This document shows positions 17,532-64,000 of a DNA stretch of 64,000 nt, piece after piece. Source of the DNA: Geosiphon pyriformis uo1. Its lineage: Eukaryota; Fungi; Glomeromycota. Each line of letters starts with the position of its first letter. Position 1 is the stretch's first letter. The notes under the pieces were generated by a model that was given only the letters and a program-made list of their open reading frames with translations, did no database searches and had not been told where the DNA came from. The stretch is from positions 1,302,001 to 1,366,000 of the forward strand of contig JAAOMT010000295.1 in assembly GCA_016748015.1 (NCBI GenBank), in the 5' to 3' direction. The position numbers and the translations under genes are program-made.

Positions 17532-17621
17532 TGCTTTTAAAAATGAAAAATAATAAATAATAATAGCTTTAAATATGTTTTTTATTCCATTAAAATTTGC
17601 TGGTCAATTTTCCTCTTCACT

Positions 17622-20966: not shown

Positions 20967-21434
20967 CCACTTACTGCTTACTCTAGATCGTAGAAATTTG
21001 ACTATTGGAAAAATTGAGCTCACTCTTTTATTATTGATTGACTTTTAGGAATCTATAAATCCGAAAGTGCAAAAAATTTTGGACACATTTAAATAAGAAG
21101 TAGGTGCAGGTACGTTAATCAAGAAAATTTTCATAGTTTACTCTATCAAAATAAACTTTTGTTAATCATTTGTCATTTGTCATTTTCACTCCTTCAGAAT
21201 CTTTTGCACTTAAAAATATATTCCCTCCTAATCTTAAATTTCACTTATTGGCTACGATAACCAAAGGCTACTAATATAACGAGTTTAATGAGAAATATTA
21301 ACCAATAATTTGCCACAGAATAAGTATACAGTCATGAAGAATGGAATAAATTAGTTTATCCGAGTATTTGGGATGAAGTTAAGGAAATTGTTTCTTTGCC
21401 TTATAAAGTCTTTAGCAATGCTAAGGAAAAGTGA
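19655..21434 (+). pseudogene. Disrupted multi-exon gene for a Ser/Pro-rich protein ending in EEWNKLVYPSIWDEVKE..SLPYKV
   Basis: Coding-like segments 19655-19983, 20349-20879 (poly-Pro from a CCT repeat), about 21050-21110 and 21199-21434 need frameshifts (about 19870 and 20730) and contain in-frame stops. The C-terminus is shared with gene 37473-38195. Confidence 0.55.
20884..20968. repeat. (TACT)n tetranucleotide microsatellite (intronic)
   Basis: Directly visible. Confidence 0.95.
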
Positions 21435-22029
21435 ATTTGAATTTGAAGAGTTTTCAAGAATAGTCTACTTAAGTTCTAGTAAAAATTCAGTTACTATGAT
21501 TTAGGCCCTCTTGCCCTTTTCTTAATTCATTTTTCTGATGCATTGAGCTCACATATTTCGAATACTTATTGTAAGATTCTTTAAAACAGTCTTGAAACAA
21601 TGTAAGAATGAGTCATTTTGAAAAAAAAAACTTTAGAAAATGCAAAAAGTCTAATACTTGTAATCGAATATGTTTTTTGAAATATTTTAATGTCATTTAT
21701 AATTACACTTTTAGGTTTAACTATACCGTTCAATTGGATACAATTATGATGTGCAAAGAAAAATTAATTCATGTGTGAAAAAATAAAATTAATTATAAAT
21801 TTTTATAATTATACTTAAAATTTTTTTTATTATAGGTCAAATTATTACAATGAGTAAAATACTGCAAAAAATATAAACTATGAAAATGATAATAGTGATA
21901 ATAACAACGACATAAAGAAACTATAACTTAGCAACTTATGTTATAATTATAGATTCATTAAAATTGGCTAATGGCAATAATAATGTGTTTAAGAAATAAA
22001 ACTTTAGTTGAAGAGTATTTAAAAAAATT
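21336..22029 (+). repeat. Direct duplication, copy 1 (copy 2 at 38091-38846)
   Basis: By-eye alignment: shared coding end, diverged proximal 3' UTR, near-identical distal about 320 bp. Confidence 0.9.
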
Positions 22030-25000
22030 CATTGCAAAAAATTTTTTGTTAGAGATATAATATCATTAATTACAGGTCAAAAATTATTACTAAAAATATA
22101 TTGTTTGAATTATTTATCTTGATATTATTTGAAAAAATTAAATTTTTTATTTTTTATTAAGTTAATAAATATTTCGTGATATATATTTGTTTGAAAAAAT
22201 TTCATAATTTGTAATTAAAAAATTATTTAAAAAGGTCAAGATTATAAATCTAGTTCATTACAAATTATTTATTTAATTAATTTAGTATATTTAAATTTAA
22301 GAATTAGAAATTAGAAAGTAAAAAATGAACATTATTTTTTAAAATAAAAAATATATTAGTCTTAAAAGCAAAAAAGAAAAAATCTAATTCTATACTAAAA
22401 TTTAGAATTACTTATAAATAAAGGTTTAATTGAAATAATATAAAAATATTAAAAAAGTCTTGAAATATAGCTGATTATTATATTTTAAGAAAGTAAGTTT
22501 ATAATAAAAGATTTATTATTTGAAAACTTGCCTATTTATAAAATTTTAACTATAAAAAAAGAATATGAATATTTTATATAATTCAAGTTGACTTTGATGA
22601 ATTGGTTGCAAGATTTATTTAAATTCTTAAAAAATAATATATGAAAAAAATTATGAGACTTTTAATGGATTCGATTGCGAAATTTCTTAACATGAACAAG
22701 TAATTAAATAAAATTTTTCAATCGGTAAGAGATTGTAATTAATATAATTATGATGCGTTTTTATTTTCATTATTTAATTTGTAAAATACCATGTCTAATT
22801 CACAATTAGAATTAATGATATAGGGAATAAAAAATTTGTATACTTTAATACCTAATTGGTAATTAATTTCTCAAAAATAATTACCTTTTTTAAAAAATTG
22901 TTCATCAAATGAGTAATTTTTGAAAAGCTGATTTAAAACATTATATTTATTTATTGATTGAATTTTTCAATCTTGGCGAAATTAATTTAATTCAATTTTA
23001 TTAATCATAAATGACACGAAAACATAATGTTACTTTTTTTATATATATATCACTAATACTGAAATATTTATCTATCTATTTTTGATTTTTGATTTTTTTG
23101 AAGAAATTGATTTTTATGAAAATTTAATGCTTAAAATTTTAAATAAATATTTAAATTTCTTTGTTTTTATTACATGTGAATTATATTTTTTTTCAAATAC
23201 TTAATTTTTTCTATTGAAAACCATGCTACTAATAATAATAATATTTTTTTCAAATTGTTGATAGCAAATAAGTTTATTATTGATATTAAATTTTTTTTAA
23301 CTGTTATATTATTATTATTTGTAACAACTTGTTATACAAAGTTTTGAAAAAACAATTTAATATTAATCTTTGATTATAACTGATTAGCTTCTAATTCAAA
23401 TTTTTTATTTTAAAAAATTTGTTATTATTATTAGATTTATTTTTGGATAAATTAAATTTGAATAAAAAGTTTATTATTTTGGTTTGTATTTTTTAATCTT
23501 AAAAAAATATATTTTATTTATTTAAATACTGATACATAAAGAATTGACTTAAAAATATCTGCTAAAAACTTCATTTAAATTGTTAATTGTTTTTTTTTTA
23601 TTGTTTTTTTGATAAAAAAAATATATTGAAAGTTTTAAAAAGTATAATCAACAATAATTTCAATCTTTGATATAATAAAAAAAATTTAAAATTGTGTAAA
23701 TAGTTTGTAATTTTTAATCAAGTATATAATAATTGATATAATTTTATGTTTAATTTTTATTTTTAGAATTGATTAAAAATAAATTATAAAACTAAAAGTA
23801 AAGTTTTTTTCAAACTTAAGAAACAACAACTTATAAAAGAATATTTTCTGATTAAATTACTTAAAATGGATTAATTTTTAATAAAGAAAGTTTCAAAATC
23901 AAAATTTTAACATGAATTTAAAATATGAATTTAATGCTTTAGAATAAATTAATTAAAATCTTATGTATTTTTGGATAAACACTTTTTATTTAATTGAAAT
24001 GCAGAATTAACAGTTCTTAATATTCTCAAATACTTGTTATAATTTTTTTTAAATAATTAATTTTCTAAAATACAAAGTTTCATCGGATAAAAATTAATTC
24101 ACTCTTATTTAGAAAATTTTGTAATTTATAAATACTTTCAAAAATTTTTATGTGATATTGGCTTCAAATTTCAAAAATTATGGATTAATTAGTTTTTGAA
24201 ATATAAAATAAAGCTTTTGTGAAATTTTTGGAGTAATCATCGAATGAGATATTAATTAATTAATTTTTTTGTAATCTTGGATTTCTTATAACTTAAAATT
24301 AAAATATCAGTAAACATGATTTTCTTTTCTTTATTTAATTTATTTAAAAATTATTTCAAGTAATTTCTTCCACAGTTCAAACCTTTTGTTTTATTTTTGT
24401 GAAAATGGCTGATATGGAATTATATTTAATGTATTTATTGCCTGAAAGTTAAAATTATAAAATTATGAAAATTTTTTATTGAAATATTTATTTGAAATTT
24501 TGCAAAATTAGCTCAATTAATATTGTCATTTTCAAAAAATCTTCTGAATGTTATAGATGAAAAAATTTATTTTGGGCAATATTCATTGACAATTTTATCT
24601 CGAAATGATTATTGTCAAATATTTTCGGAATCGAAAGTATTCGCAAACAAAAATTGACTATTCAATATGGTATTTCATTTTTAGTACTCAAAATATAAGA
24701 AACTCCCTCCTTTATTAGTTGTTCAAAATGCTTAAACCATTATTAAATTTAATTAAATGAGGTACAGTTTTAGCAAAAAGTTAGAGAGGAGTCAATTAAA
24801 ATAATTTAAAACTGATAAACTTTTGATTTCAATTCATGCATTGTCAAAATCATTTTATTAATCAGTAAATCATTAATTCAATATTGCTGAAATATTTAAA
24901 TTAATTATATATTTTTACTAATTTTTGCTAATTGCCTTAGATCAAAATATGTAATATCTTTAATTTTAAATGTTTATAACTGACTATTAAACTTTTTTCC

Positions 25001-38846: not shown

Positions 38847-39744
38847 TATAAGATAATAATATTTGTATTATTATTATTTTTTTCTTGTAAACTTTCATTT
38901 ATATGTAAAAATTATTTTAAGTCAAAATTTTAAATCCAATTTATTAAAATTACTGCTTTAATTAGTCTAGTACATTTTATTTAAGAGTTGAAATTAAAAC
39001 AGAGTTTAAACAAAAAAAAATGGGAAATTAAAATAAATGTAAATAACTCAAAAATAAAAATTTTGCAAAAATTTTACATGCAAATTATATGATGTAAAAT
39101 TCAGAATTTTTAAATAAAATAAAATAACACTTTTAAAATATAGAAATTATTTTAAAAGTCAAATAAATAATGTGACTTACTCAAATTACAAAAAAAATTA
39201 TCATTAAATTGTAATAATATTTTTCAAATCCTATATTTTTAATATACAATAATTGTTAAGTTATATTTGAAAGCAAAACTAGAGTATTTAAATTAAAAAT
39301 ACCAACCAAGTTGAAGAAATAAAACAACAACAACACTAAAGACAGTTTTTAAAAAAGATAATAAAACTAATTAAAGACTTGAAACCGCAAATCTGTGTCA
39401 TGAATTATTTTTATTAAACTAAACTCAATATGTCAAATTGGTCAACTTTCTTATTCCTTTAATATCATCAATAAGTAGAAAAACGAGTAACTGAATAATC
39501 GTCAATTTAGGGCCTTTGATTTTATTAAGATATATCGGTAATTACAAATATATGTAAACAAAAATTGATGATTTTTCCGGATACTAGTTCTTCTATTTAT
39601 TGATAATATTAAAGAATAAAAAATTTTCCTCTGGCTTATTAAGGTAATCCGTAAATAATATTACATATATTTTCCACAGTCTTTGTATCCTCTTTCACTT
39701 ATTTAAAAAATAAATATAAAAATAAATTTTCATATTATCTTTAA

Positions 39745-41197
39745 ATGAATAAAAAAAAGATACCTCGATTTTTTCAGTTGCTAATTATAATAATAATTCT
39801 CGTTTCACTCTTTTTAAAAATTTTCACACAATCGATATTTTCACACAAAATTATTATTCTAGAAAAAAGTATTGAACACAATGTAAAAAATCATAAAAAT
39901 GAATCGAAAACAAGTGAAAATAAAAGATCATTTCAGGATTCAGAGTCTTCATCGTCGCATCTACAAAAAGTACCTTGGAATCTAAGGCAAGAAGAGTGGA
40001 AAGATTTGGAGATAATGGCTCATCTCGCCAATTTTGGATACTGTTATGAAATCAATAAAATTGGAAAGAAACTTGCTGCAAAATTTGTGAAAGGTAATTT
40101 TGAGTTTCAATTTCGATCTAACCAAATTTTGACCACTTATATAATTCATATAAATTCTTTTCAGCCGGTGAGTTTTTTGATGAGGAGACTTCACAGCTTT
40201 TTATTTATTTTAAAGGAAAAGTATGTATTTTTCAAAGAATCGTATCTATTGTTGAAGCCAATTTGAAAATTATAGTTCCACACAAATCTAATTGTTTTTA
40301 GGAACTGACAAAATCACAATGGATTGTAAGAAGAACGACTCTAGTTGGTTTTACATTTGAACCATACAATGTTAACTCATTGGTAAAAGTAGACAATGAA
40401 TGGTTTGGAAATTTTAAACAAATGTGGGCCAACATATTAGCGGTAATTATGGCTAGGTTAGCTCAAGAGCGTAAAAAAGGTGGGATAAAAGGGCTTTTTT
40501 TTACTGGACATGCTATTGGTGGTGGTATGTTTTTTTTGATTATATGTTCATAATGAAAAAAATTAGCATCTACAAACTAATTTTTTTAAATATTTTAGCC
40601 TATGCTACATTCGCAGCTCTATATTGGCGGTTGTTTAAAGCCAGTCAAAGTTCTCCCAATACAAAATCCTTTAATTTTCCCACCCAGCTTGTCACTTTTG
40701 GCGCTCCAAGGATTGGCAATATTGTCTTTGCCAGATTTTTAAACACATGGAGTTCCAAGAATGATTTCAGGGTGACCACTGGAAATGATCATGTACCCCA
40801 TTTCCCTGCTTCTATAAATGGCAATAATATCTTGAAACATTCCGAACTTGAAGTTTGGATCGAATCCCAATCCAAAAACTGTGATTGTTTAGAGATTGAA
40901 CTTTTCAAATGCCCTGGTGTTTTACCTTCAGTAAACGATGTGAAAAAATTACAATTTTCTAGAAAAGTCTTTATGTTTCCTCCTGATGAAGTAAAAGCTG
41001 GTGAAAATGAGGTAATTTTTTTAGATAAATGTTTTTCGCATTTGATAATTTATAATACATAATATATATTTTCTGCTATCTAGGAATGTAACTTGGGGCA
41101 AAAACATGATGATGTTCCGGGAGATTTTTTTCATAAAGGTCCATATTTTACTATCACCATGGGTGATTGTAGTGGTTATCCAAATATCAATATTTAA
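39745..41197 (+). CDS. Secreted or membrane-anchored class-3 lipase-like protein, nucleophile Ser replaced by Ala (GHAIG), 5 exons, about 384 aa
   Basis: Exons 39745-40093, 40165-40220, 40302-40524, 40599-41011 and 41084-41197 are all in phase. N-terminal hydrophobic segment; MAHLANFGYC, IYFKG, FFTGHAIGGAYA, VTFGAPRIGN, RVTTGNDHVPHFP, HSELEVWI, CDC and FHKGPYF. Confidence 0.9.
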
Positions 41198-41628: not shown

Positions 41629-42150
41629 TGTCACAAATGACTAAACCAACATAACAATCAAATAATAGTTAAAAACAGGCTCAGACTTACTTAATAATAT
41701 AAATAATGTCACAAAACATCAATAATTATATTATTACAGATTAAAGTAATGTGCTAATAAATAGCAGAGGAATCAATTTCAAAATCACAATTGTTAATTT
41801 TTCAAAAAAATTATCTTTAATTATTTTAATAATTGTTTATTTAATAAATTACAAGAGTAAGTTTTTTACTTTTCAAGCTAATTTTGACAAATAAATATTC
41901 AGAAATTCAAAAAAAATATTGAATTAACTTTAATTTAAATTAAAGAAATATAAAAGTGTAATTAGTCAAATTATGATTAAAACTCTTTATAGCTTTAAAA
42001 GTTTCATTTATATACTTAATAAACAGAGTAAATAATCAAGTTAACAATAAGGTAATAATCAGATTATTGATCAGACCAATAATTTAGTTTATAACTAAAA
42101 ATAGGATGGCTAAAATATGTGACATTAATGACTAAAGAAATTAAAATTAA
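41629..42150. mobile_element. Degenerate solo-LTR-like relic related to the Gypsy LTRs of this window
   Basis: Starts TGTCACA. Positions 42033-42135 carry decayed 12-mers (AATCAAGTTAAC, AATCAGATTATT, GATCAGACCAAT) and TAAAAATAGGATGGCTAAAATATGTGACATTAATGACTAA, matching LTR-A 50411-50450. Boundaries approximate. Confidence 0.5.
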
Positions 42151-45536: not shown

Positions 45537-46404
45537 AAAATATTATTAAAATACTTCAAAAAACATAAATTTAGAAAAATAAATATTTTTTAATATAAAT
45601 AATTGAACATTCATTAAATTGATCCATAAATAATAAATTTAAAATAATAATTAAATAAAATTAAGTATTATAATATAACAAAAATTAAAAAAAAACAAAT
45701 AAGTTTAAATTTCAGAATTTGATTAATATTTTATTTTGATATGCAATAGATCCTCAAAAATTAACACTCAACTATCAAGACAAATAAAGAATTTGTAATT
45801 TTGTTGATATTTTTGTTTTATCAAGAAGTTTTTAATAAAAAATAATTAATAAATATATTAAAATCATTATATTATCAACAAATATTTAAATACTTATTCA
45901 TACTAACATAGTGATTAATGAAAATGAATTTTTTATGAAAAAACCTGATAAATTTTATCAAACAAATTAATAAAATATTTGAAAACTTAAATAATTGATA
46001 TGTTAATATTAAAAAATAATAATTTAAAACTTATAATTATTTTTTTAACATAAAAGTAATTAAAAATTTAAGTATAATTATTTTTGGATTATTTATCGAA
46101 ACATTTTACATATCAAATAAATCAGTTTTCAAGAAATATATTCATAAGATGTATCTATCAATTAAAAATATTTATGTATTAGTTTTTACATACCAAAATA
46201 ATAAATAATAAATAGTTAGTATTTACTAATCATGCTTTAAGATTATAAATAATATTTTTGATAAGTATTAAATTATTTCAACCTTATAATTTAAGATATA
46301 AATAAAATATTTATATGTTTTTGAAATATATCAAATTGAGTAGTTTAATATCATATTTAACTAAAATCTTTACAAGTAAAATAACTACTTAAATTCTACA
46401 TAAA

Positions 46405-46980
46405 AAGTGATAAATTTATGCTTAAATGCATAGTAACAACAATATTATTGTCTTTCAACATACTTGAAAAAAAATTAAGAAAGTTTTGCTTATTATCAAA
46501 AACTTTTTATATGAAAGACAATTAGAACTTTATGGTTACTTCAATGAAATTATAGAAAACATAAAACTCTTAAAGAAAACAACTTCAAAAATACAAATAA
46601 AGATTTTGAAAATTATATAATTAGATGTTTTTAGAGTTTTAATTATTGTTAAAAAAGCCAAAAATTTTTGTAAAAAATTTCGTTTCTTGGATACAAAACT
46701 CATTTTATCTCGAATTTATACTTTATTAACAAAAGATTTTACCAAATTAATTAATTTTAAGTTAAACAACACTCTTTAAATAGAATATTTTATAAATAAT
46801 TTAATTTTACCAAAGCTTAATTTCTTTAAAAAGAATAATATTATAATTAAAAATTATAGTTTTTATTAATTATTACATATATTAACCAATAATAATATAT
46901 AATTAATCATTTTATTTTTAGATAATAGTCATTAATTTGACTATTAACTTAATTAATTACTTAATTATTGATTTTTTTTA
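46405..46980 (+). mobile_element. Heavily decayed 3' end (ORF3, PPT and start of LTR) of a Gypsy copy related to element A
   Basis: Translates DKFMLKCIVTTILLSF..YERQLELYGYF..KKTT..LDVFRVL..KKAK..LDTKLIL..YTLL TKDF.KL..FKL, collinear with ORF 50553-51215. 46780-46980 matches the reverse complement of 50380-50552 with C>T/G>A decay. Confidence 0.8.
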
Positions 46981-47030
46981 ATAACTATATAAGTAATGAA
47001 TTTTTTAACTATAGAAAGACATAAAATTAA

Positions 47031-47068
<38 letters not shown>

Positions 47069-47211
47069 TCATGTATTAATATTTCTTTTTTTTAATATTT
47101 TAATTTTAAGTATTTAAACATTTGTAAATAAAAAATTATTTATTGGTATTTACATATCTTTTTTTTGTTTTTTTTGTTTTGTATTAATAAAATTAGTCTG
47201 AAAGCTATCTG

Positions 47212-47679
47212 CTTCCTTTTATAATTTATTAAATAAAAAAATAATTAAAAAGCACAACAATAATTGTTATTAATTCTAAAAATTATTAAAGAAAACATAG
47301 AATAATAACAGTAGTATTATTTTGTTAATTATAAATTATTTTTAGATTTTTAGATTTTTTAAAAATTTAAGCAACTGTATTTTTAAGATTAATTGTGTAT
47401 ATTAAATTCTTATTAATTTAATTTGTTCTTTTAATTAAATTTCTTTTTTAATTATTTTTATTATTCTTAATAATCTTTTTTTTTTGTTATTTATTAACTT
47501 ATTACTCAAATTTATAATAATATAGTTATAAAATTATAATGGCTTAATTTTTTTAAAAATTTGAAAATAAAAAATAATTTATAATTATTTTATGTTTTAC
47601 TTTACTAATTTTTAAAATTAATAACAATTATTGTTGTGCTTTTTAATAATTTCTTTATTTAATAAATTATAAAAATAAG
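47212..47679. repeat. Long imperfect inverted repeat (foldback/MITE-like), arms about 47212-47380 and 47535-47679
   Basis: AAAAAGCACAACAATAATTGTTATTAATT on the left arm has its reverse complement AATTAATAACAATTATTGTTGTGCTTTTT on the right arm; pairing extends inward and outward. Confidence 0.75.
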
Positions 47680-49041: not shown

Positions 49042-49804
49042 TGTTACTAATAGAATTTTAGTTATTAATCAACATAAAATTACTCTTATAATTTCTATTA
49101 TTAATTAATATATATTAATATTTTTTTAATTATTACTTATTACCTAATCAAATTATTAAATATTACTATCTAATTAATAACTCAATTTGTACAATAAAAA
49201 TTAGGATGATCAAATTACATAATATTTCAAACTATATAATATCTAAAAATTTGCTAAAATAATGAATAGTATACTAAAATATTTAATAGTTTGTCAAAAT
49301 AATTTGTAGCTCATTAAAATATATCTTTAGTTTGTCTAAATTATAGTAAAAAGAAAAATTTAAATTTATAGACTAGTACTATAACAAATTGTATAAAAAA
49401 AAAGCTTTTTTTTTGAAAAAATATATCTTATTATAAATATTTTACTTTAGATTTATTCTAATTAGTACAATTCAAAAATAAAATATATTTTAAAAAAAAT
49501 TCAATTTTTAAAATAATTATATTTGACATTTTCCAAAACCCAATTAATGTTTTAAAATTGATTAGCTACTAATTTCAGTAATTTATTAGTAACTTTAAGC
49601 TTAAATAGAAAATAATTTTCTTGACAAAATTTTATTTTTTTTACATTTTTTTATTTTTTTTTATTTTTATTATTATTATTATTAGAATAGTCTATAAACA
49701 AAATTCTTGTAAAAAAGTTGACTTTTACAGCAAAATAACTATACATTTTTAATAAGCTTTCAGACAAGCAATTTCTGAAAAAAAGTTAACATTTATTATA
49801 ATAT

Positions 49805-50493
49805 TGTTACGGGTTGGAGTAACAAGCTAACAGATAGCAAGGGAGAACAGAATTGTAGGGTGATGGAAATAATCAAAGGGGATTCAACTTCAAAGAGTGA
49901 ATTGAATAAGTAAGGATTCAATGTGCAAGATCAGTCTTATAAAATATCTCAGTTACTATTTTTTTCAAGGATAACCAGGAAATCTGAAGATAGAGGAATA
50001 GTCCGTACTGTTAACAATTAATCACCACTGGTATTAATTCTATGCCTTCACTTTGGCGCTCTTAGAATTCAATATCAGGTATTAACTTGTGCTCTTCAGT
50101 CACGTTTATACAAATAGTCTTCAAATACTACAATTATTCAAACAGAAAAAGGCCAACAAGTAATTTTTTATCTTAAGATATTTAGATACTTGAAGATAAA
50201 AAAAGGAAAATTAGCGATAAGAGAGTGATTGAGATGAAATTGTTATTTTATTTATTTGATTCTTGTCTGAGAGATGATTTTCTACAGCTAAGAGACTCAT
50301 CACTTATATATCTGTTAAAAGTGATCAATGATCAGATCATTGATCAGATTAATGATCAGATTAATAATCAGATCAACGATCAGGTTATTGATCAAGTCAA
50401 TGATCACTATCTAAAAATAGAGTGGCTAATTATATGACATCAGTGGCTAATACATGTAATAACTAATAAAAATTATGAGTTTCAACTGTAATA
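49805..50493 (-). repeat. 3' LTR of element A (689 bp, 6 x 12-bp units)
   Basis: TGTTAC...GTAATA ends (terminal CA decayed); aligns end to end with 56829-57565. Confidence 0.93.
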
Positions 50494-50504
50494 TCATCCT
50501 CTCC
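50494..50504 (-). promoter_or_regulatory. Polypurine tract of element A
   Basis: Minus strand GGAGAGGATGA lies immediately before the 3' LTR. Confidence 0.75.
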
Positions 50505-50552
50505 AAAGAGATTGAGCTCCAGCAAAATCAAGCTATTTATAAGGTATTCTAA

Positions 50553-51215
50553 TTAAAAAATTTTGTCTAACTTAAAACTAACTAGTTTGTTGAAGTCTTT
50601 TGTGGATAGAGTGTATAGTACTTGAGGCAAAATAAGCTTTGTATCTAAGAGACCAAATTTTTGTATAAGAGTTTTGGCTTTTCTTGCAATGGTCAAAACT
50701 CTTAAGACATTTAAACGTATAATGCCCAAAATTTCTACTTGTATCTCTAAAGTTGTTTTCTTCATGAGCTTCATTTCTTTTATGGTTTTACCAAAGCGAC
50801 CATAGAACTCTAGTTGTCTTCTATATGACAAGTTTTTGTCTATGGGCAAAATTTCTTTAATTGTTTTTCCAATTGTGGTGAAAGATACAAGTATTGCTGC
50901 TGTTATGCTTTCTAACAGATACTTATCCATTTTGCTACCAATTTTTTCTCTTCTGGTAGTTGTTTTCTTTGGTCTGATAACAGTATGAGTTCCACTGTTG
51001 TCAGTTATTGTGGTCTGTTTTCCAATAGTCAAGGTAGCATTTGAATAGTTTTTGATCCAATATTCATGGAAAGTATAGAAAGCATTTTGAATGTTTTGAT
51101 CCAGAAAATAATTGTTCATGTTGATTGAAAATACCTCTGTTTTGGGAATAGTGCATTTATTTATACTTGGTTTTTGCTGATTATTTGGGTCGATATTACT
51201 ACAACTGGTAACCAA
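50553..51215 (-). CDS. Extra ORF (ORF3) of element A between integrase and PPT, function unknown
   Basis: Open for 220 codons (first ATG at 51120, MNNYFL, about 188 aa) while gag and pol are broken; a homologous decayed copy lies at 46405-46780. Confidence 0.65.
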   Translation of the reverse strand: MVTSCSNIDPNNQQKPSINKCTIPKTEVFSINMNNYFLDQNIQNAFYTFHEYWIKNYSNATLTIGKQTTITDNSGTHTVIRPKKTTTRREKIGSKMDKYLLESITAAILVSFTTIGKTIKEILPIDKNLSYRRQLEFYGRFGKTIKEMKLMKKTTLEIQVEILGIIRLNVLRVLTIARKAKTLIQKFGLLDTKLILPQVLYTLSTKDFNKLVSFKLDKIF

Positions 51216-54200
51216 TCAGATCGTTTGTGATATTTCTTAAGTTGCATGCTATGAACAGAGCAATCATTGAAGATTGTTTTATATTGATCTTGTAAGATAT
51301 AAGAACCATTGTTCAAAACTTTGTTGACTATAAAAGGTCTTTTCCACCAGCTAGAGAATTTATCACCATAGACATTGTCTCTGTCTGAATGGTATTCTAA
51401 AACTAAGTCACCAATACTTAAGGAAAGTGTTTTATATGTTTTTTTTTTCTTAAGCTTCTCTTGGAACTGTTTTATTTTTTCAAAGGCAATTATACGTGCT
51501 TCTACCAATGAGTCAAGAATAATACCAAGTCTTTTTTGCAAAATGTCTTTGTAATTCTCTATTGTTATTTCTTCAAAGGGTATTGTCTCAATGTTAGTTT
51601 CTATTGGTAGTGTTGTCATTCGTCCATAAAGTAGATAAAAGGGTTCATAACTTATTATGTCATGATTCACAGTTCTATAAGCAAACAAAGCTAAAGGCAG
51701 TACTTTGTTCCATAAGTTTGTTTTTTTACTTGTTTTGGCTAGAGTTTTATACAGTGTTCTATTAAAACGTTCTATTAGGCCATTTGTTTGTGGGTGATAA
51801 AGGAAAGAAAGTTTGTGACGTATTCCTATTTTTCTACAAAGTTCTTCAACCAGTGTACTGAAAAAAGCTCTTTCTTTATCAAATAATAGTTTTTTGAGGC
51901 AGCCATGGCAACAAATAATATCTTCATAAATGAAATTGGCTATTGAGACTGCTGTTTGATCTGGGGTGGCTCTTGCTTCTACCCACTTTGTAAGATAGTC
52001 AGTAGCTGTGATAATATATTTGTTGCCATCAAGAGTTACTGTTAAAGATCCAACAACATTTATACCAATTCTGTCAAATGGTTAACCAACAGAGATTGGA
52101 TGGATATCTTCTTTGTGATTGGGTTTTCCTTTTCTTTGGCAGGTATTGCAGATTTTAATGTATTCAGCAATGTCTTTTTCCAAGATAGGTCAATAATAAC
52201 AAACTAGCATTTTCTGAATTGTTTTTGTTTTTCCAAAGTGTCTAGCTAATGGATCAGTATGCATGTTGTAGATCACAATTTTTTTTTTTTCAAATCTAAT
52301 GACTTTTTGGAGGTGGTCAGGATCTTTTCTATTTCTTTTGTAAAGTTGGTTCTGGTGGATCAAATAGAAATTTGATTGTTTGCGCAATTGTTCTCTTTGT
52401 TGTCATGTGTATTTTGGTGGGTATTTTTCTTTACCCAAAAATTCCATTAAGGCAGAGTAGTTGTCCAAGTCCATTATTGTGTTTTGTTGTGGGGGAAGTT
52501 ACTAATAATTAGGTTGATTTGGTTTGAGAAGGTTTATTGTCACTGGATGGTAAGTCTGGAAAGAGTGTTGGTGTTTTGATGATAAGCTCCTTTGCAATGT
52601 TGTATATCATAGTCAAATTCATCCAGATGGAGTATCCAGCAAGCTATCCATTTGTGTTCCAGCTTCTTTTTGTTGTGCAGCCAAACCAAGGCTTGGTAAT
52701 CTGTTATCACCAAAAACTTCACACCTAGAAGATACTTGCTCTAGTAGCTGGTAGACCAAACTACTGCTAAGCATTTTTGCTCAGTGACTGAGTAGTTCTG
52801 TTTTGCTGGGGAAAGGGTTCTACTGGCATAGACTATGGCATGTTTCTTGCCATTTTTATCTTTCTGAGATAGGACAGTGCCAAGTTCAAAGCCAGATGCA
52901 TTAGTGTAGAGAATAAAAGGTCGATCTAAATCAGGTTGCTTGAGAATGGGTTCTGTAACCAGTTTTTCCTTCAAAGTTTCAAAGACTTTTTGCTGATGTG
53001 TGCCCCAGTGGTAATTGACATTTTTCCTAAGTAACTGATTGAGAAGAGAGGCGATTTTGGAGAAATCCTTGACAAATTTGTAATAATAAGAAGCCAAACT
53101 GAGGAAAGAGCATAGTTCATAAATGTTCATTGGTTGTTTGATGTTTTAGACTTTTTCAACTTTGGCTGGGTTAGGGAAGATTCCATCTTTTGTGATAAGA
53201 TAACCAAGAAACTGGGTGAATTGTCTTCCAAAGAAAGATTTGATTGGGTTGATCTTAAGGCCAGTATTTCTGAGGAGATCAAAAACCTTTTGCAAATATT
53301 CTAGGTGTTCATCTCAGGTTTTTGAGTATACCATTATGTCATCTAAATAGACTAGAACAAAGTTTTCTTTGACTGATTCAAACACTTTATCCATTAGGCA
53401 TTGAAAGATGGGAGGGGAATTGGTGAGACCAAAAGGCATGACTGTGAATTCATAGATGCCATACTTGGTGATAAAGATGGTTTTCTTTTTGCTTTCTGGC
53501 TCCATCTCTACTTGCCAGAATCCAGCAGTTAAATCAATGATTGAAAAGAAAGCAGCATCTTTAAATTGATCTAACATTGCATCAATCTTGGGAAGTAGAT
53601 ACATGTCTCTTTCAGTGATGGCATTTAATTGGTGGTAGTCAACACAGAAGTGTAGAGTTCCACTTTTTTTGAATACCACTACAACTGGAAAAGCCCATTC
53701 ACTCTTGGTTTCTTGTATGAATCCAAGTTTTTTCATCTGGTTTATCTCTTTCTTGATAAACTCATTATTGTGCCAATTGAATTGATATGGCTTCAAATGG
53801 ATGGGATGAATTTCTCTATTGGTGATGGTATGTTGTATCACATAGGTACATCCAGAGGTATCATCTTCTTTTGAGATAACTGGGCTATTTCTAGCCAGCA
53901 GATTTTCAATGTTTATTTTTCTTTCTTTTGGAGAGAGTTTTTTTTGTTCTACAACTAGTGATTGGATCTTGGTGGTTCATTTTCAAAGGACTTTTGTACT
54001 TTTTTCAATTTTTCTCTGGATATCAAACTGATTGGTTCCCAATCTTTGTAATAGATCAGACATGATTTGCATTCATCACTTGGAAAATACAAGGGTTTGT
54101 TGCACCAGCATCTGGCACAAGGACCATGCCACCAAAAACTGTATTTGGCTTTCTTGCCAGGTTTTTTTTCAAAGGTTCTTCTAAGGATATCATAATAAAG

Positions 54201-54900
54201 CCAGCAGATCAGCTTGCTATTTACAATGATTCCTTCTTTGTCTGCTTTAATATTGTCCAGTGGTTTGTCATTGCTGGTGAAGGTGGTATAGGCGAGTTCA
54301 GCTGTTTCTTTTTGCTCTTCTTGTTCTTTTTTTTTATCACTATCTTCATCATCTTCATTATCTGATTGTTCTTTTTCTTGGTTCTGTTTGGGTATTGGGG
54401 GAGTTGTCTAATGGCGGTACTTAACCACAATGGGTTTTTCACCACATCTGATGGTTAATTCACAAAGTTCATAATCAAGCAAAGCTTTTGCTTTCTTGAG
54501 CCATTCATTGCCAACAATGATAGTATATTCCTTGGCTTCAGAAACTTCCATGTCAGTTTCAATGCTGATTCCATTGATGCAGACAGGAATAGCTTTGGCA
54601 ATACCCAGTTCTTTTTTTTTGTCACCATATACATTGGTCATTGGTCTGATAGAAGGTTCATTAATTTTTCTACCAATTGCTTCTAAGAAGTGTTTGGCAA
54701 TGACACTAACAGATGATTTACTGTCTAAGATTAAGTCAATGAAGTATTCAGCCACTTGGGCTTTACAAATCAGAGGGGTAACATTGCTGTTGTCAACAAG
54801 TCCAGTTTGGCGAGGGTGCTTGTTGGTTTTTGGTGTCTTCTTCTTTGGAATCAAGGATTTGTGAAGATCTTTCCTGAACTGTGGGTAGGTCATTAACTGG
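51161..54900 (-). pseudogene. pol of element A (protease about 54410-54890, RT about 53100-53850, RNase H about 52540-52950, integrase about 51161-52470), disrupted
   Basis: LILDSKS (DSG decayed), CVDYHQLN, MPFGLTNSP, VYLDDIMVYS, YASRTLSPA, HTDPLARHFG, PFYLLYGR; split across several ORFs. Confidence 0.93.
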
Positions 54901-55219
54901 CCAAAGGTAATATGTGCTGGGGTTTCTATGAAATCTTTGACAACGGAATAGGGTCCAGATTTTTGTACAATTTCTAGGGGTTCTAACTTTGGAGGATTCT
55001 TAAAAACTTTAGCCTTTGGTGGGTTATTGTTATCAGTGGCAGAAGTTAAGGCTTTGTTGAGGTCTAGAACGAAATCAACCTTGGCTTTTTTCTTCTTTCT
55101 GGTTGGTTCTGAGATGTTGATTGCTAGTTCATCTATGTCATGGTCATTATCAGTTAAGTTAAAAGTGTAAAAGAGGTTTTCTTCTGATTGGCTTGTACTC
55201 TCACCCTTTGGAGATGCGC

Positions 55220-56776
55220 TTACCAGTTTAAAGGCTGATAAACAGTGGCTTCAACTAGAAGATCCTCTTTAAAGAAATTGATGTTGGCATGATTGGGTCT
55301 TTGATTGGAGACATTATTGTTGTTGTTTGGTTTATTGTTTTGGTTGTTATTGTTTCTGAAAGCTGGAAGAGGCAGTGGAAGATTGTTACAATCTCTTGAA
55401 TAATGTTCAGTTAATCTACAATGATAGCACACAAGTGGGCCATGATTTTGCTGTCTTTGATAGGGAGGTTGCTGGGGCTGGATAAAACGAAGTTCATATT
55501 TAGGTCTTGGTGGTTGCTGGTTATCTCTGACTGCTTGTGCCAACAGTTCTAATAACCAGGCAAGGTTAGCTGTGAGTTTATCTATTAATTGTTCATTTGG
55601 GTCTTTGGTTTGGGCAGCAAAAGAAGTAGTAGCTATTTGAAGAGCAGGGGCCATAACAGAAGCAGGAGTAAAAACTGGAAGTGTGGATCCCAGATGCATC
55701 CTTTGGTTATCTTCAATTCTTTGGGTGAGTTCAATAGTCATGTCTATTGTAGGGTTGTCTTTCAGAGCCAAGAGAGGCCAAAGAGCATAAGATAAGTCAG
55801 TTCTCAATCTTTTTGTAAAGAAATGAATTTTTTGTTCTTCTGTCCAGTTTCTTCTAGAGTCTACTTGCTTGATTAACTTTCTGATTGCTTTGGCATATTT
55901 GGTTACAACTTCACCAGGATCTTGGGTTCTTCTTTCTAATTCTATGTGCCACTTGGATATCAAGATTGGAGTTCTGAACTTGTTTTCAAACCAGGTTGTG
56001 AAAGAGATGTTGTTTTCTTCAGCATTTGCTGACATCCATCTAATAATTCTTTGATGGGCATTAGCATCAGTTTCCTGTGAGAACCAGGTAGCAGGAGAGC
56101 CTTGGAGGTAGCCACCAACAATTTGAAACTTGTACTCATCATCATATTGGTTGGCTGTAGCAGCTCTCTCAAAGTTATCCAACCATTCAATTGGATCTTG
56201 GGCATCACCTTTGAATAATGGTAATGGGGTGTTGTTTCTTCATCCTAAAGCAGTCTGTATACTTTGGAGAGCAATCAGAATGTTTTGTTGCAGAGGGTCT
56301 TGAGCCATTGGTTCAGGTGTAATTGTTTGTGTGGAGTGTTCTAATTTACTTGAAAAAAGATCAAAAACAGGAGCAGTTTGATAGCTTTCTTCTTCTGTTT
56401 CAAGAGGAGTTTCTGTTGATTGATGAGCAGCAATCCAAATGTGGATTTGATGATTTAGATATTCAAAATTAGGGGGCTGTTGTTCAAAGGTTGCAGAATA
56501 TAAAAGCTGATTGATACTGTTGTTTCTTCCTTCAAAGTTGTTTTCAAAATAAGCTTGGTCAAAGTAATAGATTGTATAAGCTGTGTAGGTTTCAGCTAAA
56601 TGCTTGTTTAAGAACCAGTTCCAAAAGTCTTGGAATTGTCTGCTGGATTGTTCTTCAATGGGAAAGCAAATCAAGCAGGAAAGCAAAGAATTGAGTTCAA
56701 TAAAGTCTAGATCATTTTTGTTGTGTGCTTTAAAGTGTTCTTCTGATTGTTGTGGCAGGTATAAATAATCACCCAT
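55220..56776 (-). pseudogene. gag of element A with long N-terminal extension; one internal TGA at 56240-56242
   Basis: ORFs 56240-56776 and 55220-56182 are in the same frame, separated only by a TGA (GGA TGA AGA, plausibly CGA>TGA). Capsid-like F.G...DP.EWL..FE motif and zinc knuckle CYHC....H...DC. Confidence 0.88.
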
Positions 56777-56812
56777 ACAATAGAAAACAAAGTGGATTTT
56801 GACAACTTTACA

Positions 56813-56822
56813 GGAAGCACCA
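56813..56822 (-). promoter_or_regulatory. Primer-binding site of element A (TGGTGCTTCC)
   Basis: Begins with TGG 6 nt after the 5' LTR and is complementary to a tRNA ending GGAAGCA-CCA (recalled for a Thr tRNA in yeast; unverified here). Confidence 0.65.
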
Positions 56823-56828
56823 CTTTTA

Positions 56829-57565
56829 TGTTATGGGTTAGAGTAACAAGCTAATGGATAGCAAGGAAGAACAGGATTGTAGAGTAATGGAAATAATCAA
56901 AGGGAATTCAACTTCAAAGAGCAAATTAAATGAGTAAGGATTCAATGTGCGAGATTAGTCTCATAAAATATCTTAGTTGCTATTCTTTTCAAGGATAACC
57001 GGAGAATCTGAAGGTAGAGGGATAGTCCATACTATCAACAATTAATCACTGCTGGTATTAATTCTATGCCTTCACTTTGGCACTCTTAGAATTCAATATT
57101 AGGTATCAATTTGTGCTCTTCAGTCACGTTTATACAAATAGTCTTCAAATACTACAATTATTCAAACAGAAAAAGGCCAACAAATAATTTTTTATCCTAA
57201 GATGTTCGGATACTTGAAGATAAGAAAAGAGAAATTAGCGATAAGAAAGTGATTAAGATGAAATTGTTATTTTATTTATTTGATTCTTGTCTGAGAAATG
57301 ATTTTCTATAGCTAAGAGACTCATTACTTATATATCTGTTGAAAGTGATCAACAACCAGGTCAATGACTAGGTCAATGATTAGGTCAATAATTAAATCAA
57401 TGATTAAGTCATTAATCAAGTCAATAATCAGGTCAATGATTAGGTCAACAGTCAGGTTATTGATCAGGTCAATGATCACTATCTAAAAATAGAATGGCTA
57501 ATTATATGACATCAATGGCTAATACATGTAATAACTAATAAAAATTATGGATTTCAATCATAACA
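56829..57565 (-). repeat. 5' LTR of element A (737 bp, 10 x 12-bp units)
   Basis: TGTTAT...ATAACA ends; TATA-like ATATATAAG on the minus strand at 57327-57335, just downstream of the 12-mer array. Confidence 0.93.
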
Positions 57566-60500
57566 ATATAACTATATAAAATAATTAGTATAGAATTGGT
57601 TATTCTACTTATAAGTTCAGCAGTTCAAATTATAGAGAATAATTTAAAAATAAATTCAGTTATCAGAGATTCAATTGCTTATAAAAAACATAAATTAACA
57701 GCAAACAGACATTAACAACATTCAAAAAAAGAAACCAAAAATTTCTGGTAATATTTGGTGTTCTTTTATGAATTAATACAGCAACAACAACTTCAAAGTA
57801 ATGACCATACTTAACATAATAACTTTAAAGTACTATTAATTAATTTATATTCACTGTAAACAAAGATTTAACATTCAAAATAGAATTAAAGTTTTTAAGA
57901 AATTATTATACCAATATATTAAAAACTGTGTTAACAATTATTTTTTTGAAAATTATAACATTTCAGAAGTTAGAGACAACTTTTATGAAAACTTAATACA
58001 TTATTTTTGCTTAGAAACAAAAGACTTTAATATTAAAACACTTGACATTTATTTTTAAGAACTCAACTTTAATATTATTTAATATTGTAAAGAAAAATAC
58101 TTAATACAATCTTAATATTTTTTAAACATAAAATTAGAGCTTAAAAATAACAACAACAAAAAACAAAAACAAAAACAAAACTCAAAAACAATCCACAACA
58201 CACTAAAAATAACTGCTAAATACTTATAAACATTTGAAAAAAGAATTAATATCGGATTATTATTCTTTATTATATCATATCTAATTTTATTTGCTCAACT
58301 GCAAACACCCAATTTATTTTTTATCTTGTTTTTGACTCTGAAAAATTTTATCTTACCAAAAAGCCCAACACAACAGCCTGAACAAACTTTTATTAGCACA
58401 AACTTTTTTAACTTTCTAACAAAAAATCAAAGTAACTACTCTGACAACAATAAAAACACTTCTGAATTTACTGAGAAAAAAACTGTTGAAAACAAAAATA
58501 CAGAAAAAATGGCAATTACTTATATCACAAAAATTATTGAATTTACTAGAAAAAATGCAGACACCAGTCCACAAAAATAGTTCAACAAAATTCAGAAAGC
58601 AGGAAATGCAAATAGATAAAATACAGCAATAATATTAAAAATAATTCTTTATTTTCTTCAAAAAACTACAAACAAATAGTTAAAAAACTTAAATGTATTC
58701 TTTGGAATCTAAAAAGCATTCAAAGATGCTTTTCTGAAACAATTTACCAACAACAATACCTTTATTATTCTTTGAAACTAATTTTAAATATCAAACAAAA
58801 ATTCTTTGAATTTGTTATAACCTATTTTAAGAAATTTAACAAACTTTTCTAACAATTTAACAATTAAAAACCAATAAATATTACCCTAATTCTTAAATTT
58901 TGGACCAATTTATAGCCAAATTAAAAAATAAATTAATCAAAAAAGTTTGTTTTTATGACTTAACAAACTTAATTACAGCTATTTGACATATAAAAAACTA
59001 TAAAATAACAATAAAAGAAACAAATTACACCAAATTTGTTAACCTTACAATTGACAAAACCAGCTTAATAGCTAAAGAGAAAATTGATTAACTTGCAAAA
59101 AAAGTTGAAAACTATTTTACCAACCAATAACAATAGCAATAACAAAGATATCAGCCATTCTAAAAATACAATCAAAATAATTTTTTATTATTATCAAACA
59201 ACCAATCTCAAAGCTGTTATTATTGTGGAATTTTGAAACACTAAAAACAAGATTGCTGAAAAATACAAAGAGATCAACAATCAAAAAACAATTAATATTA
59301 TTTCCAATCTTAGCAATTTTACTATCAATTTCTACTACTAACTTATTATTTACCAAGATCTTAATATTGAAACAATTACTATTCATCTGTTTTACAACCT
59401 ATTTAACAACAATATTTATAACTACCAGTTCAGCAATATTAAGTATTTGTTCAAAAATTAATTTAGCAAAACCAATTCACACTTTAAAATTAATTTGCAA
59501 CAAACAATAACGGATTCAATTCCAATAACTAATTAGTTTTTCAAAATCTAGCTCAACAAAAACCCAATTATTATTATATACAATCTAGCTATTTCACAAT
59601 ACCAAAAAAATCAGATTTCTAGTAAATAGTACTTTCTGAAAATAAAGCTGCAGTTTCAAGATAAAACTCTTTTAGTAATACTATTTTATCAGCTCAAATT
59701 GCCTTAAATACCAATCTTTCCAATATCTTTCTATTTAAATTCAAAGCCAATGAATAATTATTCTTATTCAGTAATGTAGCAATTATAAAACAAAAGACAA
59801 TTACAGCAATATACACTAAAGTTAAAATTAAAGAGAAACCAATTCAGTTAATCTTAGACAGTAAATCTATTAAAAACATTATTATTTACTAGTTAATACA
59901 ACAGCTATAATGAAATATTAACAGATTTGCTCAAACAGTCATTATTATAATAGATAATATAAAAAACACCAGTAGAAGAAATTGACAATTTTTTATTTAC
60001 CATTGATGGAATCATTATTCTAATTAAAATTTTTGTTATGAATACATTCTAATACTAAGATTTTGTCAAAAATAATTGACTCCTTAAAGCCAATGCAAAC
60101 TTAGATTAGGAAATCCAAGAACTCAAAATCTTATACCAAAGACAATATATCAGAGTACTTGCTATTTGTTAAAAAAAGTCTCTGTGTTTGAATTTGAAAA
60201 AGAAAAAAAATGCCAATTATCGAAACTTATATAGCTTTTGAATCAACATTTAATTAGACCAAAGAAACAGAACAAAAATTTTTCGAAGAAACTAATAGTT
60301 AAAACAAAGTTTAATATTCTAAACCAGAACTATAAAAACAATAATCTTATATTCTACATAAATGTAAAGACTACAACAAAAAGCTTTTATTAATAGAAAC
60401 TTGTATATTACCAAAAAAATACAAAACATGTACTTGCTATTACTATAAGACTTACTACTAAAAACAATTTAAATATCCCAAATAAAATGAGTAATAGAAC

Positions 60501-61119
60501 AACATTTTTTGTTTTACATATAGAGAACTACTACTAAAAGAATACAATTAAATTGATCTTATAATAAAAAAAAGAGTTTGTGATTAGACCTGTTAATATG
60601 TCTTATCAATTGCAAAAAAAGTTTGCAGAAAAATTTTTTTTAATACAGCATATAATAATGCTTTAAACAAATTCTATTATTATTTATATAATGCAAAAAT
60701 AATTTATAAACTGACTATAGTTTTGATTAATAGAAAAATCCAAAAAGACATTTACCAAATGAAAAAAGTTGAATACATTAAATACACTTTTGAAATCGCT
60801 AAATACAACTACAAAGATAAAGTAAAAGTATATTACCAAATTGCAAACCACACTTATCTGACCAAAAAAGCTCAAATTTATTGATTAGAGCAAATAAACA
60901 TTTAACTATGCAAAAAATGTGCCATGTCTTGTAATAACCAATAATGTTTGGAATGTTATGCTCTTAGTATTCTTTTGTCCAGTAAAAATGACAAGTACAA
61001 AATCGAATTTAGAAAATCTAAGTCAGAAGAAAAAATTACAACAATTTCAATTAATTTTACTAAAAATTAGCCTGCCATGCAATTCAAGTATTTTGACAAT
61101 AATAGTCAAAATACCAAGC

Positions 61120-61515
61120 CAAAAAAAGCTCATAAAAATAATACAATATATGATTTATAATATCTAAGAAAAGATACTTTGATTCTCTAACCTAAGTTCT
61201 TAACAAAAATTAATCTCAGAATTGCTCTTAAAATACTACCAAAAGTAATAATTTAAATTACTTTTCAATTATTTTTGGCCAGCAAAAAAATCAATATTAA
61301 AGGAAAAATTATAGATGCAGAATACACTAAAGATATTACAATCATGCTACAAAATAAAATTAATAAACTATTTAAGATTAAACATGCTAAAAAAATTGTT
61401 CAAGTAATTTACTTACTTTTAATTAACATTTTGGATTTATAATCAGTTAATTAAAGAAAACAATTAGACAAAAGTAATAGAAAAACTCAAAGTTTTGATT
61501 CAACTGAACAGTTTA
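61120..61515 (+). pseudogene. dUTPase domain inside pol of Gypsy element B (decayed)
   Basis: All five trimeric dUTPase motifs appear in order and in one frame in decayed form: KAH...IYDL (AGYDL), FQLF (SRSS), GKIIDAEYTK (GxIDxxYxG), KIVQ (RIAQ), RKTQSFDSTE (RGxxGFGSTG). Confidence 0.8.
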
Positions 61516-62302
61516 TAGTTCCAGTAAATATAGCTCTTAATACACAAAAAGAATCTTATCAGATTCTTTGATTTTTTTAACCAATTACCATTTTATCTTT
61601 TAGAAAACATTATGAAATTTACATTCACCCAAAACCAACTACCATCCAACAAATTATTGAATCAAATAAACAGATTTGTTTAACAAATAAATCTTAATTT
61701 TAAACATTTATATTTCAAAAAAAATGAAAAAATTCTGAATTACATTTTATAATTCCAACAAACATTCCATTATTTTATTAAATAGATTAAAAATTAAAAT
61801 CATACATAGCAATATCTTCCAGAATGAAATCTTTCAAACTGTTTATAATTTTATTAAAATCGTAAATTATACACTATTTCCAAATTCAAACATTATTTCT
61901 AGTACCAAAAACTATTATATTATAGAGAAAAAACTTTTTCAAATCAATATGGGTCTCTTAAAATCCCAACAACAAAAAAAATTGAAAAAATTAATTGTTG
62001 AATATGCTAATATATTCATCAAAGACAATAATAATCTCAAAAAAACTAATATTGTGCAACATTAAATTCACACAAAAAATGTTCTATCAAAAGACTAACA
62101 AGTCTATCAAGTTTTACTTGCCAGCCACCAATTCATAAAAAAAAAGTGCAATAAATGCTTAACAAAAGTTTTATACAATCATCAAAAAATCTCTGAACTT
62201 TATTAGTGGTCTTTTTTAAAAAAAAAATAAGAAAATCAGATTTTATGTAAATTATTGTCAACTAAATAGTATTACAATTAGAGATGTTTATTCACTTCCA
62301 AG

Positions 62303-63260
62303 TAGAGTTTTAATGTTTGGTCTGATTTGGTTTGAGTTTGATTAAACTACTGAATTGAATTGAATTCAAACAGAAAATTTGACAAAATTTCAAACTTGAA
62401 CTCAAACCAGACTTAAAATTATCAAACTTAAATTAAATCCAAACATATACAACAAGTCTGGTTCAAGTTTGGTTCGAAGTTTATAAATATGTTATAAAAT
62501 TTTTTATTATTAACATTAATAGCAGTTATTACAAAAAACTAAAGCAGTTTTCTAGTTAAATTGGCCAAAAATCATAAAAAAAATAACAATTTTACCTGTT
62601 AAAACATTTCTTAAATTAACTTGCAATTTTTCTGGTTATTTTGTTTTTTTTATAATATTTTCTTATTGTAACATATAATGTTTAGTAAAAAGTTTCTAAA
62701 TAGCACTATAAGAATTTGAGAATGCCCAAAGTTTTACCAAAAAATGATTTATGTACATATTTTGAGACTGTATATTTAGCTGTTTTTTTTTTATTCATTT
62801 AAATTTATCAAAATAGTCTTATACTTCAATATAAAAACTATATTTACTAAATATATTAATATTTGAACTATTTGGATTATCAAATTTTATTATTTCGAAT
62901 TTTGAATCTTTAGTAACATTGAATAATGCCAACAATAAATTTATTTTGGTAAGTTAAAAAGTAGAATTTTTTACATATATATTTTTATATACCTCTTTAA
63001 CTGATTATAATAATTAAACAAAATAATAATTAATAAACAAATAGTACAAGTTATATTTTTTTTTAATTTCATTGAACTTGAACAAGTTTATAAACTTCAA
63101 ACCAAATTCAAATTAAACTCAAACTTATTAAAAAAGTTTAATATTAAACTCAAACCAAACCTACTTTGAAAAATTGGTTTAGTTTAAATTTAGTTTATAA
63201 TTTAAACCAAACTTAAACAACACCTAAAGTTTGGTTTGGTTTGGTTTGATCAAAACTCTA
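62303..63260. mobile_element. Non-autonomous hAT-type DNA transposon (MITE, 958 bp) inserted in the RT of element B
   Basis: 12-bp TIRs TAGAGTTTTAAT / ATCAAAACTCTA (1 mismatch). 8-bp TSD CTTCCAAG (62295-62302) vs TTTTCAAA (63261-63268), differing only by transitions. Subterminal TTTGG/CCAAA repeats. Removing it restores the RT motif YSLPRID. Confidence 0.85.
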
Positions 63261-64000
63261 TTTTCAAAAATTGACAATATGCTAAATGATCTTGGAAAAG
63301 CCAAGTTTTTCTTAACTTTAGACTTAAAAAAAAATATTAACAAGTCAAAATAAATCTTAAAAATCACTTAAAAACAGCATTTACTATATAAAAAAAACTA
63401 TGAGTTTAATGTTATGCCATTTTAACTTTGCAATGTACCAGTAATATTTTAAAGACTCATGAATATTGTTTATGAAAAACTCTTATAACAATCAGTAGTT
63501 ATTTATCTTAATAATACTAATGTCTACTTATCAAGTTTCAAAGCTTATCTAATCTATTTGCAAAAAATTTTTCAATAATTACAGAAAGCAGAATTGAAAT
63601 TAAACATTGAAAAATGTTATTTCAAAAAAACAAGTTTAATTTTTTTTGAACATATTGTTAGTAAAAATGAAGTGCAATCCAATCCAAAAATAATTAGTGC
63701 TGTTAAAAACTTTTAGGTTTTCCAAAATATTATAGAACTAAAAGAATTTATAGGATTAATTTTCTATTACCAAAAGTTTATTAAAAAAATTTTTGAAATC
63801 ATTAAACTACTTAACTATCTAATTAATAAAAATATTAAATATTAATAGATTTAAGTCTAACAGCAAATATTTGATATTCTCAAAAAAAAACTCATTACTA
63901 TTTTAATTCTTATTTATCTTAACTTTAACAAAAAATTCTAGTTAGTCATTAATATTTTATATACAGCTTTTGGTACTATCTTATTATAATTAAATATCAA

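Follow-up and report, generated by a model that had tools for sequence, protein, structure and literature searches.

The 64,000-nucleotide stretch analysed here (the window; contig JAAOMT010000295.1 of Geosiphon pyriformis, Glomeromycota, Archaeosporales) carries on its minus strand a dead Ty3/Gypsy long terminal repeat (LTR) retrotransposon, the focal element. Its two LTRs appeared in an initial annotation to differ by transitions only, which raises the question of whether a fungus outside Dikarya mutates its repeats by a process resembling repeat-induced point mutation (RIP). Our verdict is that the pattern is real, strong and family-wide, and that it probably represents a novel form of methylation-linked repeat mutagenesis. 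The proposal of a repeat-restricted, C>T/G>A-directed process on both strands in a non-Dikarya fungus is supported. The likeness to RIP holds as far as the changes are transition-only and confined to repeats, but RIP in the strict sense is not supported: neither a preference for CpA nor strand-coordinated or clustered mutation was found.

In the first 295 columns of the LTR alignment, where about 33 differences had been counted by eye, there are exactly 33 transitions, no transversions and no gaps. The whole pair (49805-50493 and 56829-57565) shows 71 transitions and no transversions in 689 columns; in the alignment to positions 50485 and 57557 the sole indel (48 bp) is a four-unit difference within a 12-bp tandem array (50324-50410 and 57349-57480), and without this array 54 differences in 591 columns remain. 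The lower bound of the transition/transversion ratio (Ti/Tv) is 23 at 95%, and if the ratio were 3, zero transversions would be expected with P=1e-9. With C or G taken as ancestral, the two copies have 34 and 37 changes, on both strands (C, 23/101 positions; G, 48/144; strand difference P=0.086), and all four dinucleotide contexts are hit, which bears out the claim that changes occur on both strands of both LTRs and outside CpG. By 3' neighbour, the changed fractions are 14/24 for CpG (0.58), 17/45 for CpC (0.38), 24/88 for CpA (0.27) and 12/84 for CpT (0.14). The 8-bp start of the left LTR differs from the other three termini at five places, all C>T or G>A, in a comparison that uses this start and its reverse complement and presumes a perfect inverted terminus. 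The Kimura two-parameter divergence of the pair is 0.115 with zero transversions, the background being under about 0.9%; on the assumption of a background Ti/Tv near 1, the pair thus exceeds background by a factor of at least 13. LTR-based ages are therefore inflated, as had been predicted.

Host DNA is spared. The observed/expected (o/e) ratio of CpG is 0.80 in host DNA outside stretches resembling open reading frames (231 vs 290 expected) and 0.13 in the zone of transposable elements (TEs), so that the spectrum of the repeats does not recur in unique non-coding DNA. The control was a linked host duplication of 0.7 kb, in which 41 transitions, 42 transversions and 11 gap events were counted in 707 columns (Fisher P=1e-14 against the transition/transversion split of the LTRs); it is old and small, about 88% identical with indels, and 38/160 of its inferred C/G sites are changed. 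An older copy in inverted orientation, which comprises the LTR and the internal DNA beside it, has 168 C>T/G>A changes, 32 reverse changes and 82 transversions in 887 gap-free columns and has lost 62–91% of its C in every context. Another Gypsy, of a different family and more decayed than the focal element, has a GC content of 20–22% and a CpG o/e of 0–0.15; it is interrupted by a miniature inverted-repeat transposable element (MITE) whose target copies differ by three transitions and whose 12-bp terminal inverted repeats differ by one. Older copies are reduced to 14–22% GC. Among the motif changes that had been listed as signs of the bias, DSK does lie in the focal element, but YLNN and the MITE belong to the second Gypsy, and the focal YLDD is intact.

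The pattern extends to the gag family at large, of which the best 120 of 204 protein matches were analysed. All 120 of these matches are named Geosiphon pyriformis, and 117 of the 120 clusters listed have a single member. After removal of columns with fewer than 20 sequences (29/339), or without a majority, and of residues near gaps or in stretches below 55% identity, 1,872 of the 2,137 residue changes relative to the majority residue were reachable by C>T/G>A alone under a permissive rule by which any codon pair counts; 89 were reachable by reverse changes only, 30 by mixed transitions and 146 needed a transversion. For single-base missense changes drawn at random, the C>T/G>A class would hold 14% (247/1,752). 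Derived states are shared between gag copies 9,166 times against 9,397 expected, which matches independence and thus points to one burst from a near-single master followed by private damage, i.e. star-like divergence. The mutation load of the copies spans 0.43–1.61 of expectation (5th–95th percentile). As a side observation, at least 120 G. pyriformis ‘hypothetical proteins’ in public databases (P0001-P0120) turn out to be fragments from this single, mutated family of gag genes.

Read-derived contigs of run X1 show 1,496 transition places and 199 transversion places against the focal element, with strands evenly hit (G, 516/1,565, 33%; C, 391/1,180, 33%), whereas 10.4 kb of host DNA, represented by few paralogous pieces, gave 33 transition vs 34 transversion places; the share threshold was 10 for the element contigs and 5 for the host paralogues. 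X1 is possibly the source of the window itself, so these counts are not independent support; X2 (23 records) and X3 (1) were excluded. The depth of the X1 element contigs (50–91) is close to single-copy depth (83–100), and they are therefore real copies. Summed over the element, contig depth exceeds that on host DNA by about three orders of magnitude, a figure not to be read as a copy number. A search of viral contigs for gag relatives found none, and no RNA data set was listed as a carrier; metagenome contigs gave seven short reverse transcriptase (RT) loci (CpG o/e 0.12–0.79), all too short to include a pair of LTRs, and these were not used.

For comparison within Glomeromycota we used integrase clusters. 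Of 252 distinct changes in the four clusters that include members named Rhizophagus, 81 were of C>T type, and of 65 in the one cluster that includes members named Entrophospora, 22 were, as against 83–86% in four random 15-copy samples of Geosiphon gag. This control, with at most 15 members per cluster and cluster 3 (three members) excluded, is imperfect: it concerns another gene, has a 90% identity ceiling, includes metagenome members and probably represents selected lineages.

Cytosine loss covers every context, yet it is not flat: CpG is lost fastest and a 5' pyrimidine is favoured. The suggestion of a relaxed context was thus correct in that all contexts are changed, but not in the sense of indifference, as a 5' pyrimidine doubles the rate. 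Codon-fixed non-CpG changes in gag occurred in 630 of 4,478 cases (~14%), against 26 of 6,851 (0.4%) for nine reverse-type changes, a difference of ~37-fold; the changes are consequently not all traceable to ancestral CpG sites. They comprise R>K (187/1,118), L>F (63/537), P>S (155/1,192), G>E (74/390), G>D (37/459), M>I (75/453) and H>Y (39/329), while the reverse-type controls reach 0–1.3% each. At seven apparent CpG Arg codon columns (of nine candidates; 97 and 210 were excluded as true Trp and Gln) Arg is kept in 75/369 cells, corresponding to ~0.8 hits per C, about six times the non-CpG rate. Among 3' contexts in the protein data CpA is the slowest (0.093, vs 0.134 for CpC and 0.135 for CpT); by 5' neighbour the rates are 0.185 for T, 0.148 for C, 0.075 for A and 0.092 for G. 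The context preferences of the LTR pair and of the old inverted copy tend in the same direction as those of the proteins, most clearly in that 5' G is lowest. Classical RIP indices are uninformative for the focal element, the TpA/ApT value of its internal region being 0.77.

RIP of the Neurospora type works in episodic bursts and leaves strand-coordinated changes, and APOBEC editing during reverse transcription leaves clusters of G>A confined to the sense strand. Across 113 gag copies, the balance of C>T against G>A in the sense strand showed no overdispersion (0.81 vs a null of 0.79, P=0.40), neighbouring changes shared no strand preference, and block clustering was absent; a test for same-strand runs of changes in the LTR pair likewise found none. 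The lack of strand coordination and clustering excludes editing during reverse transcription as well as one or a few heavy passes. In simulations of single-strand rounds, 20 rounds or fewer never reached the observed strand value, while 40 or more were allowed.

The explanation that we favour, at about even confidence, is a repeat-restricted, methyltransferase-coupled C>T mutator that acts gradually. One Gypsy family spread from a near-single master copy, and its silenced repeats would have been marked by methyltransferases, possibly a DNMT1/DNMT5-type enzyme at CpG and a DIM-2-type enzyme guided by heterochromatin elsewhere; marked C would then be converted to T and left unrepaired, independently in each copy. 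Methylation is the probable mark because the order of CG over non-CG matches that described for Phycomyces repeats (PMC11258239), and because five methyltransferase types (DNMT1, DNMT2, DNMT5, DIM-2 and RID) are reported for the clade of arbuscular mycorrhizal fungi (AMF; PMC8298701, via another paper). Conversion was presumably faster than spontaneous decay, either enzyme-coupled or with T:G repair lost, given that Ti/Tv is at least 23 here and 2.8 in wheat TEs in the account of PMC2996936. The absence of bursts suggests that the process acts in vegetative nuclei, in small steps spread over many generations of cells. Pfam scans of the host open reading frames of the window found no methyltransferase or deaminase in 31 frames.

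Several points weigh against this gradual, methyltransferase-coupled mutator. We infer both the methylation mark and the enzyme in Geosiphon. The precedents for an enzyme-coupled process, Zymoseptoria Dim2 and DIM-2-dependent RIP, are CpA-specific, while among the 3' contexts of the proteins analysed here CpA changes most slowly, and the twofold preference for a 5' pyrimidine is unexplained. Rhizophagus is heavily methylated yet shows no such bias in the integrase control, so methylation alone does not predict the bias. The sole non-TE duplication is too old to test a homology trigger, and many light rounds of RIP (40 or more) fit the strand data equally well.

The strongest of the alternatives, although in our judgement an unlikely one, is passive decay, by which repeats densely methylated in all contexts would lose 5-methylcytosine by hydrolysis in long-lived, slowly dividing nuclei with a very low background of replication errors, a process that would call for no mutagenic enzyme. 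The rates follow the expected order of methylation, the sites are independent and unclustered, and a CpA-specific step is absent, all as passive decay would have it. In wheat TEs, as reported in PMC2996936, C in CG and non-CG contexts also decays to T faster than in introns and untranslated regions, and LTR clocks run fast; however, the cited effect there is about tenfold, with a TE rate threefold faster and the Ti/Tv given above, against an excess of at least 13-fold here and, for non-CpG sites, the ~37-fold excess of C>T over reverse changes. In Rhizophagus irregularis, moreover, 32.5–49.5% of C is reported as methylated, yet only about a third of the integrase changes are of C>T type, for what that weak control is worth.

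True RIP, i.e. premeiotic homology recognition through RID and/or DIM-2 in many light rounds with a relaxed, CpG-first context, ranks next and is improbable as well. The changes are transition-only, restricted to repeats and saturate to AT-rich relics; RID is among the enzymes reported for the AMF clade; and no near-identical group is seen among the 120 gag clusters listed, although differing gene models may explain this last point. Against it stand the lack of CpA preference and of strand-coordinated bursts, and the linked 0.7-kb duplication, which is not hypermutated (P=4e-4 vs the same load plus minimal background), although its divergence and indels make it a poor RIP target. The published record, as far as the available text of the papers goes, points the same way: a 2025 kingdom-wide screen saw RIP-like signatures in ascomycetes only (PMC12543289), and RIP signatures went undetected both in Gigaspora margarita, according to PMC8647823 with reference to Venice 2020, and in Mucoromycotina (Dallaire 2021, PMC8647823). 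A homology-triggered premeiotic RIP peculiar to Geosiphon, with its own CpG-first, 5'-pyrimidine-favouring specificity, is more doubtful again. If true, it would move the origin of RIP before the split of Dikarya and Glomeromycota, and the scars would be genomic evidence that this lineage, long called asexual, has passed through repeated sexual cycles.

Very improbable is an APOBEC/AID-like or other deaminase, acting during reverse transcription or on silenced repeats, or damage by ultraviolet (UV) light. The 5' pyrimidine preference, with TC highest, would suit such agents, but both strands are affected to the same extent (33% of G and 33% of C places), each LTR has changes of its own, strand-coordinated clusters are absent, CpG is fastest, and the MITE and its target copies are mutated too; deaminase editing during reverse transcription is thereby largely refuted. 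The excess of tandem dinucleotide changes that UV would leave is also absent (CC>TT, 29 vs 32.1 expected; GG>AA, 20 vs 19.3). Finally, an ordinary AT bias of mutation across the whole genome, or else an artefact of assembly or damage, is hardly credible: the genome is AT-rich and the control duplication is old, small and itself changed at its inferred C/G sites, but CpG is kept in host non-coding DNA, host paralogues have a Ti/Tv of about 1, and the same spectrum appears in read-derived contigs at near single-copy depth.

On present tests the Geosiphon pattern belongs neither with the Dim2 mitotic mutator nor with RIP. In Zymoseptoria tritici, PMC8016269 describes that functional dim2, without meiosis, brings more than tenfold more mitotic mutations over background, of which more than 95% are C>T, and that these are restricted to repeats, as here. 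However, more than 98% of those changes are at CpA and CpG is spared, and the enzyme is demonstrated, in an ascomycete, while that of Geosiphon is putative and would belong to Glomeromycota. RIP of Neurospora crassa (RID/DIM-2-dependent; 10.1101/115501, PMC12543289), as outlined in these sources, shares the C:G>T:A-only changes on both strands, the dead transposons and the AT-rich relics, but is homology-triggered, premeiotic and CpA-preferring, whereas Geosiphon has another context and lacks the burst signature. Nor is the APOBEC pattern seen in Geosiphon, as the strands are equal and clusters are absent. The idea of a RIP-like defence outside Dikarya is not wholly unprecedented, a RIP-index signal having been claimed for Zoophthora radicans (PMC11105155), likewise a Ty3-rich genome; that claim concerns another phylum and rests, in the text available, on dinucleotide indices with caveats by the authors, whereas the Geosiphon changes are aligned and polarised. 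Rhizophagus irregularis, of the same subphylum and with TEs highly methylated at CG, has many young, low-divergence TEs, and the relevant parts of PMC8647823 and PMC8298701 report no RIP signature; it lacked a strong C>T bias in the integrase control.

Our literature searches, which did not cover the Geosiphon genome paper, retrieved no report of RIP-like mutation for Geosiphon or Glomeromycota. Geosiphon was not found in 12 of the 19 supplements of PMC12543289, the genome table included, files 13–19 lying outside this search. An AMF-wide TE study gives an LTR cover of 41.2% for G. pyriformis, and in its available text the terms ‘point mutation’ and ‘CpG’ do not occur. A strong mutator in Glomeromycota would mean that defence against repeats by mutagenesis is more widespread, or older, than has been assumed, and its context would escape CpA-based RIP indices. 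Whether it acts before meiosis or in vegetative growth would bear, in a testable way, on the question of sex in these and other mycorrhizal fungi. Dates taken from Kimura landscapes or LTR divergence in the Geosiphon genome would greatly overstate age, and many of the ‘hypothetical proteins’ annotated there are mutated pieces of transposons.

The assignment of the focal element to Ty3/Gypsy follows from its paired LTRs, target duplication and gag-PR-RT-RH-IN order (Table 1). Its gag has a single premature stop, at a place where relatives have Arg; in the RT a stop codon lies four codons behind YLDD; and the integrase has three premature stops, with its first catalytic Asp now Asn. The integrase starts with its own Met, which is residue 1 of stand-alone integrase relatives, and is not part of a Pol polyprotein.

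Table 1. Positions of the focal element, the other repeats and the control duplication in the window
Feature	Position	Strand	Evidence or remarks
3' LTR, 689 bp	49805..50493	-	LTR alignment; purine-rich tract precedes on sense strand
5' LTR, 737 bp	56829..57565	-	Pairs with other LTR by alignment; longer 12-bp tandem array
4-bp target-site duplication	49801..49804 (left), 57566-57569 (right)		Same 4 bases at both flanks
gag with zinc knuckle	55223..56776	-	Weak zf-CCHC match; 84% identical to P0001 over 518 aa; best of the relatives listed at 83%
Linker and aspartic protease	54408..55250	-	RVP_2 E=3e-5; active-site motif DSK (54725)
Reverse transcriptase core	53314..53976	-	RVT_1 E=9e-23; YLDD intact (53349)
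RNase H	52741..53145	-	RT_RNaseH_2 E=5e-30
Integrase	51194..52474	-	Weak rve match; 59% identical to P0121, residues 1 to 428
Older copy of LTR plus neighbouring internal DNA, inverted and heavily decayed	46400..47520	+	GC 13.8%
Second, more decayed Gypsy, other family	58200..64000 (left end approximate)	+	DSK 59857, YLNN 63504
MITE inside RT of second Gypsy	62303..63260		8-bp target copies 62295-62302, 63261-63268
Control host duplication, ordinary spectrum	21336..22032 / partner 38091-38849	+	Aligned over 21336-22050 / 38091-38867

The 8-bp target of the MITE suggests a hAT element. At the host-gene end of the old inverted copy, the decayed LTR retains two CpG at 46680-46713, and this may be the edge of the mutated zone. 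A 109-bp fragment of the tandem-array end of the LTR, 75% identical, lies at 42027-42135 in the host-gene region. The first part of the window (1-1900) is AT-rich and CpG-poor (o/e 0.36 in the first 2 kb) and resembles another decayed repeat, the focal element being unmatched there. At 18500-19230 the sequence is relatively GC-rich with open frames on both strands, to which Pfam gave no convincing match. At 9774-11117 (minus strand) lies a C2H2 zinc-finger gene of Sfp1-like type, which contains long repeats of Asn and of Asn-Thr; among its 32 matches, the 16 with organism names are all from non-Dikarya fungi. Two class 3 lipase genes were found at 16464-17603 (minus strand) and 39745-41062 (plus strand); the genome has another, diverged paralogue at a different place.

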